The translations under genes and the position numbers were made by a program. Source: an uncultured archaeon (GTDB lineage: Archaea; Aenigmatarchaeota; Aenigmatarchaeia; GW2011-AR5; JAHLMP01). Taken from it: a DNA stretch of 27,090 nt. Within the stretch, counting starts at the first letter, position 1. Each line of letters opens with the position of its first letter. The stretch lies in the NCBI GenBank assembly GCA_964651025.1, contig CAZYXF010000001.1, positions 1-27,090 of the forward strand, written 5' to 3'. This document shows positions 13,943-15,964 of the stretch, in pieces. The notes beneath the pieces were generated by a model. It saw only the letters and a program-made list of their open reading frames with translations, did not search any database and was not told the DNA's origin.

Positions 13943-14038
13943 CTAAAGAGCTGAAGTGAAGAACACGAAAGTTACGATGAAGAGAAACGTAAATGCTAAC
14001 AAAAGCAAGAGCAATGCTTCGCCAAAACCCAATCTCAT
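13943..14038 (-). CDS. Putative 31-aa single-transmembrane peptide
   Basis: MRLGFGEALLLLLLAFTFLFIVTFVFFTSAL*. Fills the rps2/tRNA-Pro gap, with TTTAAA 21-27 nt upstream of its ATG. Confidence 0.55.
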   Translation of the reverse strand: MRLGFGEALLLLLLAFTFLFIVTFVFFTSAL

Positions 14039-14065
14039 AAAAGTTTCATCACCTTAACTTTAAAT

Positions 14066-14139
14066 GGGCCCGTAGTCTAGCCTGGTCAGGACCCCGGCCT
14101 TGGGAGCCGGAGACCCCGGTTCGAATCCGGGCGGGCCCA
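14066..14139 (+). tRNA. tRNA-Pro(TGG)
   Basis: Acceptor GGGCCCG/CGGGCCC, A73, anticodon arm CCGGC-CTTGGGA-GCCGG, T arm CCCGG-TTCGAAT-CCGGG. Confidence 0.97.
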
Positions 14140-14180
14140 CTCTTCAAAGTTAGAATTTGGGGTAAAGAGAGCTCAAGAAC

Positions 14181-14699
14181 TTAATTGAACTGTCTCATAA
14201 AATGTTTTACGAGCAACTCGTTCACAGCAGGATTTTCACGCGTTTGATGATGTAGGAGCTCTTCTGCGGTTACTTCAACAGGGTCTAATGAAAGAGTGTA
14301 AGTTATGCCAGGGAAACACATGTATGTGCCACTTTCTATGTCAACTGCACAAAATGGCACTTCATCGAACATAGCTTTGTTGAGGACAATCGTATCGCCT
14401 ACTTGATATCCGCCTATAGCTCCTATCTTCAGAGTTTTAGTTTCTCTGTCTATTCGAAAGAGCAATGGAAGTGGTTCTTCCCTGACTTCTCTCGGCAGTC
14501 TTGTGTTCATGTAAATTAGCATGTCCTCCTTTGGGATTTCTAGCTCTTTGGAAAGCAAGTCAGCAACATGATTATAAGCTTCGTTGACTATTTCAACTAC
14601 ACGAGAAACATAGCGCGGATCAGCGAAAACGTAGATTTTACCTCTCGTCTCCTTCACATTATAGAGATCTTCGTAGAATTCGTTCAGCGATCTGTTCAT
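14181..14699 (-). CDS. Hypothetical 172-aa protein, possible zincin-like fold (EExxH variant)
   Basis: Has an SD-like AAGGTGA and TTTTAA upstream, and no competing gene. GGYQVGDTIVLN...VTAEELLHH resembles the zincin strand plus HExxH helix. Confidence 0.6.
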   Translation of the reverse strand: MNRSLNEFYEDLYNVKETRGKIYVFADPRYVSRVVEIVNEAYNHVADLLSKELEIPKEDMLIYMNTRLPREVREEPLPLLFRIDRETKTLKIGAIGGYQVGDTIVLNKAMFDEVPFCAVDIESGTYMCFPGITYTLSLDPVEVTAEELLHHQTRENPAVNELLVKHFMRQFN

Positions 14700-14748
14700 G
14701 TTCTCGCTTCACCTTCAAGCTTTTAAGTTTTGGGACAACAATTCACAT

Positions 14749-14838
14749 GACAACGACAAGCGAGCTCATGCTCATCGCTTCATCGCTCATGAAATTGCAA
14801 CGAGAAACGAAATAGCGTATTCCTCGCTTGTCGTTGTC
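14749..14838. repeat. Perfect 16-bp inverted repeat with 58-nt spacer
   Basis: GACAACGACAAGCGAG (14749-14764) and CTCGCTTGTCGTTGTC (14823-14838). The spacer contains tandem TCATCGCT x2 and GCTCAT x3. Confidence 0.9.
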
Positions 14839-14845
14839 TGATAGC

Positions 14846-15964
14846 ATGGCAAAACTACCGCAGAGTTTCGTGAAGTATTTGATAAAGGCAAAATTTGAAG
14901 CAAGTGGAATAGTTGAGCGACCAGACGTGATTGGCGCTATATTTGGGCAAACAGAAGGATTGCTTGGGGATGAGCTCGATTTGAGGGAGCTTCAGAGAAC
15001 TGGGAGAATAGGAAGAATAGAAGTGACTGTGCAAAGCAAGAACGGCAAGAGCTTTGGAGAGATAACAATCCCTAGCTCCCTTGACATGAGCGAAACAGCA
15101 TTGATAGCAAGCGCTTTGGAAACCATAGAGAAAATTGGCCCTTGCGACGCAAAAGTTCGCGTTGAGAGCGTTGAAGACGTGCGTTCGCAAAAGAGGAGAT
15201 ACATAATAGAAAGGGCAAAGCAAATACTTCGCGAGATGATAGAAAAGACGAGAGAGGAGACGAGAGAGCTAAGCGAAGTTATTAAAGAAGCGGTTCGCGC
15301 ATATGAGTTAACTAGCTATCGCAACTTGCCCTGTGGCCCCGGAATTTACGAGAGCGATGAGATAATAATAGTCGAAGGTAGGGCAGACGTCATAAACTTG
15401 CTAAAACACGGGATTAAAAACGCTATAGCCATTGAAGGCAACACAATACCCCAAGCCATTATAGAGCTCTCTAGGAAGAAGATAACAACTGCATTTGTTG
15501 ATGGCGATAGGGGAGGAGAGCTTATATTGAGGAAGCTATTAGAGCTCGCTGATATAGATTACGTTGCTCGCGCTCCTGAGGGAAAGGAAGTAGAGGAGCT
15601 CACCAAAAAAGAGATATTTAAAGCCCTTCGCTCCAGAGTTCCAGCGGATCAAGTAAAAGGAAAAGAAATAGCAAGCGAAGCGAAAAACTCGCTTGAAAAG
15701 GCTGTTGAAAAAACGTTGAGGGAAATCTTTGGAAGCAGGGCTGCTGTGCTAATAGATAAAAGCGGCAGCGTAATCGCGCGAATTCCACTTAGCCAGCTAT
15801 CGGTTGCCATTCACGATTTTCCTCGAGCCTATGCTTTGGTTGTTGATTGCAACCTAACCCAAGAGCTCGTTGATCTGGCTTCAAGAGCAGGCATAAAGGT
15901 TTTGGCTTGTAATAGCGCTGGAGAGGTAAACCCAAGGGGGCTGAAGATAATAACCCGCGTTTAA
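14846..15964 (+). CDS. dnaG: Archaeal DnaG (TOPRIM; exosome-associated, primase-like)
   Basis: GIVERPDVIGAIFGQTEGLLG, LQRTGRIGRI, IIVEGRADV, DGDRGG. ATG 14846 preferred to TTG 14828. Confidence 0.95.
   Translation: MAKLPQSFVKYLIKAKFEASGIVERPDVIGAIFGQTEGLLGDELDLRELQRTGRIGRIEVTVQSKNGKSFGEITIPSSLDMSETALIASALETIEKIGPCDAKVRVESVEDVRSQKRRYIIERAKQILREMIEKTREETRELSEVIKEAVRAYELTSYRNLPCGPGIYESDEIIIVEGRADVINLLKHGIKNAIAIEGNTIPQAIIELSRKKITTAFVDGDRGGELILRKLLELADIDYVARAPEGKEVEELTKKEIFKALRSRVPADQVKGKEIASEAKNSLEKAVEKTLREIFGSRAAVLIDKSGSVIARIPLSQLSVAIHDFPRAYALVVDCNLTQELVDLASRAGIKVLACNSAGEVNPRGLKIITRV

Follow-up and report, generated by a model that had tools for sequence, protein, structure and literature searches.

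What is the long inverted repeat that lies directly before dnaG in an uncultured archaeon of the Aenigmatarchaeota (a DPANN group), and what, if anything, does it do? The window analyzed here comprises the 27,090 nt of CAZYXF010000001.1 (GCA_964651025.1), from a host genome of 544 kb in 70 contigs (86% complete, 45% G+C). Sequence reading and a repeat finder agree that the two arms are complementary at 16 of 16 positions (100%) and enclose 58 nt, confirming the arms, the spacing and the 7-nt gap to the dnaG ATG described in an earlier note on this DNA. That note had proposed a structured cis-regulatory leader of dnaG, with a thermosensor among its options; the core of the proposal stands (the helix is conserved, is present in a single copy and has both arms in an independent assembly), whereas the thermosensor option is disfavored. 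We propose, with a probability of roughly 0.5, that the repeat closes a structured, cis-acting 5′ leader of the dnaG mRNA as its helix P1, and that this helix would be opened by translation of a short upstream open reading frame (uORF) that it encloses.

Conservation of the helix in relatives

For 29 relatives belonging to the same order, the 250 nt that precede dnaG were aligned (lineage names given for relatives are those of the record titles, some of which are clearly mislabeled). Four conserved blocks follow one another: a TATA-like (AAGC)TTAAAAAC element, ATATTCAT about 55 nt further on, CTAkTTCTG, and GAGGTG followed by the ATG. When each relative was folded as a single sequence, the CTAkTTCTG block paired with a purine-rich stretch, nnCAGAAnnAGG, that begins approximately 25–30 nt after the TATA-like box. 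The arms in the window are positionally equivalent to these strands, the 5′ arm to the purine-rich strand and the 3′ arm to the pyrimidine-rich CTAkTTCTG block. The upstream region of a relative from the same genus (DnaG 68% identical) has no sequence similarity to the window; a helix, GCATCGATGGAC / GTCCGTCGATGC, nonetheless occupies the corresponding position and includes one U–G pair on the dnaG sense strand (z = −3.7).

The pairing was evaluated on the 16 + 16-nt strands of 33 sequences, anchored by hand on the AGAA/TTCT core because MAFFT lost the register of the variable 5′ strand. In this set, 72.9% of cells are paired, compared with 57.3% after shuffling, and the covariation score of 0.454 (0.192 when shuffled) was reached by none of 500 shuffles, bearing in mind that the sequences are phylogenetically related and that shuffle statistics overstate their independence. 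Registers slid by 1–3 columns gave scores of ≤0.2, and the three pairs just outside the core each occur as four to six pair types (e.g. CG 16, UA 7, AU 5). As choosing the 5′ partner by complementarity could inflate the pairing, the best duplex of the 3′ block with the real upstream sequence was also compared with 200 dinucleotide shuffles per genome, giving a median z of −3.0 and p ≤ 0.05 in 27 of 34 sequences. Across the family, G–U and U–G pairs outnumber A–C and C–A combinations in P1 by 49 to 16, an excess which indicates that the helix is better formed on the dnaG sense strand and favors RNA over a DNA-level element or an antisense transcript. RNAalifold, applied to one genus, was uninformative owing to little divergence and one misaligned insertion. 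Pairing is thus kept through compensatory changes on the dnaG sense strand, as is expected of a structured cis-regulatory leader RNA. The earlier note had named covariation upstream of dnaG orthologues as a check, and it is found here for a helix at the same position in relatives.

P1 varies in several respects across the family. Its AGAA/UUCU core is conserved in sequence as well as in pairing; the window copy has ACAA/UUGU instead and contains no G–U pairs. P1 measures 16–22 bp in metagenome-assembled genomes (MAGs) from hot habitats and about 10–12 bp in those from groundwater, and its arms are separated by approximately 45 to 130 nt. Two other interpretations of the conserved blocks were rejected. 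An antisense RNA was considered because the minus strand folds slightly better than the plus strand (−46.8 kcal/mol), but the family-wide G–U excess favors the sense strand. The conserved 3′ block as the promoter of a leaderless dnaG is contradicted by its distance from the ATG, which varies between 15 and more than 80 nt, and by its covariation with the 5′ strand.

Chance, artefact or mobile element

Perfect inverted repeats of at least 15 bp within 300 nt are rare in this genome: only four are present in 544 kb, and shuffled genomes contain about 0.1 repeats of 15 bp and lack longer ones altogether. The 111-nt stretch around the repeat folds at −39.9 kcal/mol on the plus strand (z = −4.07), with none of 200 shuffles as good. 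Among 604 crude gene starts, the helix upstream of dnaG (−30 kcal/mol, against a genome mean of −16.9 ± 3.4) is among the four strongest, alongside its own mirror image before the divergent gene, a set of repeats resembling origin recognition boxes (ORBs), and a G+C-rich helix.

Two metagenome contigs from other samples (L048 and L036) encode an identical DnaG. L048 has both arms unchanged amid five single-nucleotide polymorphisms (SNPs) in the surrounding ~180 nt (four upstream and one in the loop), supporting both arms at the level of an independent assembly. L036 (Ga0190319_1006524) has as its first base the one that directly follows the 5′ arm, a break that is typical of an assembler stopping at an inverted repeat. 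The genome contains no second copy of the element, its sole other match being 14 nt long (E = 0.6). The flanks, CACAT|GACAAC... and ...GTTGTC|TGATAG, share no direct repeat, and so show no target-site duplication. The earlier note's own alternatives, an inversion artefact or a relic resembling a miniature inverted-repeat transposable element (MITE), which it expected to be dispersed in many copies, were therefore rejected: the MITE because of its single copy, the absence of a target-site duplication and the synteny with dnaG across phyla, and the assembly or amplification artefact because both arms occur in an independent, SNP-bearing assembly. Given the rarity in shuffled genomes, the single copy and the independent contig, chance, a MITE and an artefact are all unlikely origins for the repeat.

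The 14-nt match is an exact copy of part of the P1 arm, ACAACGACAAGCGA, at 1043–1056, within the SepRS/SepCysS coding operon; a small palindrome, TTGTCGTT-C-AACGACAA, adjoins it in the region 1033–1057. It is probably a chance match.

More broadly, a reading in which there is no RNA element at all, the repeat being a MITE-like relic, a DNA-level operator or cruciform, or an inversion artefact, can point to the break of L036 at the repeat and to the lack of G–U pairs in the window arms, so that this copy alone cannot tell DNA from RNA. The relatives argue against it: arms of different sequence occupy the same syntenic position across phyla, the G–U excess lies on the sense strand, and arm spacing is too variable for a transcription-factor palindrome. 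Together with the intact arms in L048 and the lack of any copy beyond the chance-level match, this makes the reading scarcely credible.

Layout of the locus and transcription start

The features of the locus are collected in Table 1. DnaG was identified by a match to NCBIfam NF003108 ('DNA primase DnaG', 477 bits against a cut-off of 300) and by its Pfam Toprim domains, and sequence reading found no Shine-Dalgarno motif between the 3′ arm and its ATG. Within the loop, which opens with CTCATGCTCATCGCTTCATCGCTCATG, lie the features that the earlier note had listed, namely tandem TCATCGCT units (14772–14779 and 14780–14787) and three GCTCAT units (14764–14769, 14770–14775 and 14785–14790); the TTTTAA upstream is likewise present as described. 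A further loop segment, which resembles the 5′ arm, can pair at 11 of 13 positions with 14824–14836 as an alternative to P1, and contains the family-typical AGAA core that the perfect 5′ arm lacks. This segment, which was not seen in relatives, could provide an alternative pairing or be the trace of a duplication.

Table 1. Features of the dnaG leader and its surroundings, in window coordinates
Feature	Position	Strand	Remarks
Divergent orphan gene, 172 aa	14181–14699	−	From the list of open reading frames; context, outside the element
BRE/TATA-like element AAGC-TTTTAAG	14717–14727	+	TTTTAA at 14721–14726; aligns with the relatives' AAGCTTAAAAAC block
P1 5′ arm	14749–14764	+	GACAACGACAAGCGAG; perfect 16-bp complement of 14823–14838
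Four UCAU motifs	14766–14790	+	TCAT at 14766, 14772, 14780 and 14787; include both in-frame uORF ATGs
uORF MLIASSLMKLQRETK + stop	14768–14815	+	15 codons; read from the sequence
Loop segment CAACGAGAAACGA	14798–14810	+	85% direct copy of the 5′ arm (repeat finder)
P1 3′ arm	14823–14838	+	CTCGCTTGTCGTTGTC; ends 7 nt before the dnaG ATG, inside the dnaG ribosome-binding window
dnaG coding sequence	14846–15964	+	Archaeal DnaG-type TOPRIM protein, 372 aa; ATG 14846–14848

We infer that the TATA-like element, with its adjoining transcription factor B recognition element (BRE), drives the dnaG leader, and perhaps the divergent gene as well, with which dnaG shares a 146-nt intergenic region. The distance from the TATA-like box to the helix core is 34–35 nt in the window and 32–40 nt in most relatives. 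As the box stands at a near-constant distance before the helix, transcription would start at the first bases of P1, at approximately 14749–14751, 22–24 nt after the box, and the 5′ arm would form the 5′ end of the RNA. The start at about 14750 suggested in the earlier note agrees with the conserved distance from box to helix, the position itself being a prediction in both cases. That note had also described the genome as largely leaderless; in a weak check of this description, a TATA-like box stands at the leaderless distance before 22% of crude gene starts, compared with a background of 4%.

A short open reading frame enclosed by P1

The loop contains a 15-codon uORF that the earlier note had overlooked. 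Three nucleotides separate its ATG from the 5′ arm, and seven separate its TAG stop (14813–14815) from the 3′ arm; the L048 strain variant keeps the frame open. In the same-genus relative, the uORF encodes MPTLLLSFVP and stops 8 nt before the 3′ strand. Defined as an ORF of at least eight codons that begins with ATG and ends within −16 to +5 of the TTCT core, the uORF signature is present in 23 of 33 leaders; shuffled interiors yield 4.4 ± 1.9 (at most 11 in 1000 shuffles) and the reverse complement yields seven. The signature recurs in roughly 16 independent lineages. At the modal stop position (−9), TAA occurs six times, TAG five times and TGA twice, and since all three stop codons are used at one position, what is conserved is stop function rather than a particular sequence. 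Many relatives also have a GGTGA Shine-Dalgarno motif before the uORF ATG. A short ORF in the 5′ leader is thus kept in both presence and position, as in leader-peptide control elements. A conserved peptide motif, [ILF]-I-(T/S)-H, was noticed and set aside, as it cannot be told apart from translations of the nucleotide motif TTCAT in different frames.

The positioned stop codon and the enrichment of ORFs are left unexplained if P1 acts on stability or processing, as a 5′-terminal helix that either protects the mRNA from 5′-to-3′ exonucleases or marks a cleavage that releases a small RNA of ~90 nt, with no direct role in translation. Such a role would be in keeping with the position of P1, which begins at the predicted 5′ end in all lineages, with its greater length in hot-habitat MAGs, as if it needed to stay folded, and with the pairing of 5′ and 3′ ends that is typical of stable small RNAs. 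However, only 7 nt, without a T-tract, lie between P1 and the dnaG ATG and no separate promoter is visible, making the element part of the dnaG mRNA, and the interior is too variable to provide the conserved target site of a trans-acting RNA. We judge a stability or processing element to be distinctly unlikely.

The UCAU cluster and possible protein binding

TCAT is the most enriched 4-mer in the helix interiors (55 observed against 10.6 expected, z = 13.9), occurring in 29 of 30 lineages, and the longer TTCAT occurs 30 times against 3.5 expected. Leaders often hold two to four copies of UCAU at variable spacing. No other TCAT cluster in the genome is as dense as that in the window, and none of the others is flanked by a strong helix. 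The 'GCTCAT/TCATCGCT' units of the earlier note are, by this comparison, copies of a family-wide UCAU motif, which that note had missed as such.

Several copies of UCAU at irregular spacing, up to four per leader, resemble a cluster of binding sites more than a codon pattern. P1 and UCAU might together be an operator at which an RNA-binding protein represses the dnaG mRNA or processes it, with the uORF secondary or incidental; candidates are DnaG itself (in autoregulation, as for the rnc and rne leaders), the exosome or a KH-domain protein. The sequence conservation of the AGAA/UUCU core would fit such an operator, as would the helices of Hydrothermarchaeota, which are invariant while their interior drifts, and the specificity of the element for dnaG in this genome. 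Archaeal DnaG binds RNA as a subunit of the exosome, and it matches the RNase M5 family weakly through the shared TOPRIM fold; RNase M5, itself a TOPRIM protein, cleaves a helix in which the 5′ end of a precursor is paired with the 3′ end. However, the RNA that DnaG is reported to prefer is A-rich, not UCAU, the window has ACAA/UUGU where the family core would be expected, and an operator leaves the uORF signal unexplained. Protein binding as the primary function is therefore unlikely.

A combined scenario is decidedly improbable: an ancient dnaG operator common to DPANN archaea and Hydrothermarchaeota, recognized and perhaps cleaved by DnaG or the exosome in the manner of RNase M5, by which DnaG would set its own level, with the uORF as a translation-dependent override. 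If it held, the dnaG leader would be without described precedent as an autoregulatory mRNA operator of an RNA-decay factor in archaea.

Distribution across archaeal lineages

The same layout, comprising a long helix, UCAU, a uORF with its stop at the 3′ strand and 15–25 nt to dnaG, is found in other lineages. In Hydrothermarchaeota, a 22-bp P1 and a nested 13-bp helix are both invariant among four MAGs, and the uORF (MKVNIILITHL...) varies, partly at synonymous sites. One Nanobdellati MAG has a 20-bp P1 and the uORF MINLILLITG, and a second class of small DPANN genomes (0.5–1.3 Mb) has P1 cores of GAGAA/TTCTC with TCAT inside. Neither the helix nor TCAT enrichment was detected in Thermococci.

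Rfam 15 gave no match at E ≤ 10 for positions 14000–15500 of the window apart from the neighboring tRNA and overlapping chance-level matches, and none at E ≤ 1 for the leaders of 27 relatives' loci in four lineages; nothing on a dnaG leader in archaea was found in the literature searched. The element is thus a putative variant of uORF-containing structured leaders that has not been described before and is conserved in several archaeal lineages. Four known classes of RNA were considered and rejected. For a C/D box small RNA, there is a CUGA after the 3′ arm (14838–14841), but no matching box C on either strand and no snoRNA-type Rfam match. For a riboswitch, the interior (~45–130 nt) cannot be aligned except at the UCAU motif and the stop codon, and holds no conserved ligand-binding core. 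H/ACA RNA and 5S rRNA are contradicted by the absence of their boxes and by the variable interior.

Some further observations concern the relatives themselves. In the second class of small DPANN genomes, a signal recognition particle RNA gene (RF01857, 149–154 bits) adjoins dnaG on the same strand (L209:1135–1404 and L219:1147–1415). L169 and L183 (labeled 'Methanosarcinales') and L168 ('Woesearchaeota') fall in one GTDB class, with genomes of 0.5–1.3 Mb and DnaG proteins that are 67–70% identical, and the 'Methanosarcinales' labels look wrong. A separate DnaG lineage (MGKLAQSTIKYL type) is represented by the metagenome loci L051, L055, L058, L063, L070, L088 and others; there, the spacer from the Shine-Dalgarno AGGAGG to the dnaG ATG is ATGTTTATC or a close variant, which is the leader motif string 'ATG TTY ATY', in this lineage in frame with dnaG.

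How translation of the uORF might control dnaG

P1 is predicted to be formed with a pairing probability of 0.96 at 75 °C and 0.78 at 85 °C, and both start regions are predicted to be poorly accessible, that of the uORF having an unpaired probability of only 0.28 at 75 °C. A ribosome needs about 15 nt on either side of a start codon, and the arms of P1 lie 3 nt and 7 nt from the two starts, so the folded helix should hinder initiation at both. We therefore envisage a switch with two states. With P1 closed, the ribosome-binding windows of the uORF and of dnaG, which lacks a Shine-Dalgarno motif, would be covered, both starts would be shut and dnaG translation would be low. Loading of ribosomes on the uORF would occur mainly while the leader is being transcribed and the 3′ arm is yet to be made; a translating ribosome would then hold P1 open, terminate 30 nt upstream of the dnaG AUG and could re-initiate there. 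DnaG synthesis would in this way be coupled to uORF translation, that is, to the translational capacity of the cell, and would otherwise be low. The greater length of P1 in hot habitats is expected if the helix must stay stably folded in vivo, providing supporting but indirect evidence.

That length also bears on an RNA thermometer, in which P1 would melt on warming and expose the dnaG start. The 3′ arm abuts a dnaG start devoid of a Shine-Dalgarno motif and the organism appears thermophilic, both as a thermometer would have it. However, known thermometers use weak, mismatched helices, whereas P1 is a perfect 16-bp helix predicted to be 96% formed at 75 °C, and the rise of helix length with habitat temperature indicates selection to stay folded. 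The thermosensor listed as one option in the earlier note is therefore very unlikely.

Several points weigh against control by uORF translation. A transcription start inside or after the 5′ arm would preclude the RNA helix. The P1 alignment depends on manual anchoring, for which the shuffle tests compensate only in part. In the window, the uORF has no Shine-Dalgarno motif and its start is buried by P1; in most relatives, dnaG has a Shine-Dalgarno motif between P1 and the ATG that P1 leaves unpaired, making masking less obvious. The uORF peptides are poorly conserved beyond a hydrophobic start (M-F/L/I-I...). Finally, the 'ATG TTC AT' string reads ATA in about one-third of relatives, where the uORF begins at another ATG, so the UCAU motif is not simply start codon context.

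Other features of the window and host genome

The divergent 172-aa gene has no Pfam or NCBIfam match and is not homologous to the gene at the equivalent position in the same-genus relative. At its 3′ end, dnaG overlaps a convergent prolyl-tRNA synthetase gene by 4 nt (15961–15964), leaving no space for a terminator between them. A tRNA at 14066–14139 (66.6 bits) has the anticodon loop UGG and is thus a proline tRNA; its G+C content of 0.73, against 0.45 for the genome, is consistent with a thermophilic host.

Elsewhere in the genome, an 18-bp perfect inverted repeat, CCTTCATTTCCTATGGAA / TTCCATAGGAAATGAAGG, with repeated ACCTTTATTTCTT units (C15:3372–3519) lies directly upstream of a 423-aa ORF resembling Orc1/Cdc6 and is probably a replication origin with ORB-like boxes; it is one of the other three perfect repeats of at least 15 bp. 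The repeat before dnaG was itself rejected as an ORB-type origin, having no adjacent orc1/cdc6 gene, with the real ORB-like repeats of the genome lying elsewhere. The strongest long-range helix upstream of a gene (−32.2 kcal/mol), GCAGCGAAGTCCGCGTTGCAG / TGCAGCGCGGATGCTCGCTG, is found on host contig C9, ~80–95 nt upstream of 12034 on the minus strand; G+C-rich and spanning 78 nt, it may be an unannotated structured RNA.

Significance and comparison with known systems

To our knowledge, cis-regulatory mRNA structures have rarely been described in archaea, and hardly ever in DPANN lineages, whose members cannot so far be grown on their own. This leader, which accompanies a single housekeeping gene in at least four lineages and is absent from Rfam, could seed a new RNA family. 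If the proposed mechanism is correct, reduced and largely leaderless archaea still use leader-based translational control, and the dose of DnaG, an exosome subunit and primase-like protein, would be tightly regulated. The leader is also a compact and testable model of uORF-dependent re-initiation and of the role of 5′-terminal helices in archaeal mRNAs.

Four known systems invite comparison. In bacteria, dnaG lies in the rpsU-dnaG-rpoD operon and is held low by an internal terminator, a poor ribosome-binding site and RNase E processing. The likeness is that of a low-dose gene named dnaG kept down by features before its start; the two proteins are unrelated apart from their TOPRIM domain, and the bacterial case has neither closing helix nor uORF. 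The Escherichia coli rnc and rne leaders, with hairpins cut by RNase III and sensed by RNase E, respectively, likewise place a long, stable, gene-specific helix before the gene of an RNA-binding or RNA-cutting enzyme. The uORF and the UCAU repeats have no counterpart there.

The UCAU copies recall the YCAY clusters bound by KH-domain proteins such as Nova, in a resemblance only: both are multi-copy, irregularly spaced and single-stranded. The Nova system belongs to eukaryotic splicing regulation, and we know of no archaeal KH protein that reads UCAU.

The remaining comparison is with bacterial leader-peptide and uORF control, exemplified by the translation attenuation of ermC, by secM-secA and by a Salmonella small ORF that opens a sequestered ribosome-binding site (PMC8092293; translational coupling is reviewed in PMC12548453). 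Here too, a short ORF lies in or beside a helix that occludes a downstream start, and passage of the ribosome is expected to remodel the helix and permit downstream initiation or re-initiation. As the uORF peptides are poorly conserved, it again appears to be the act of translation, rather than the peptide, that matters. The dnaG leader differs in being archaeal, in the gene that it would regulate, and in showing no evident stalling signal or ligand; it differs above all in architecture, with one long helix that would join the 5′ end of the mRNA to the region before the start codon and enclose the whole uORF.

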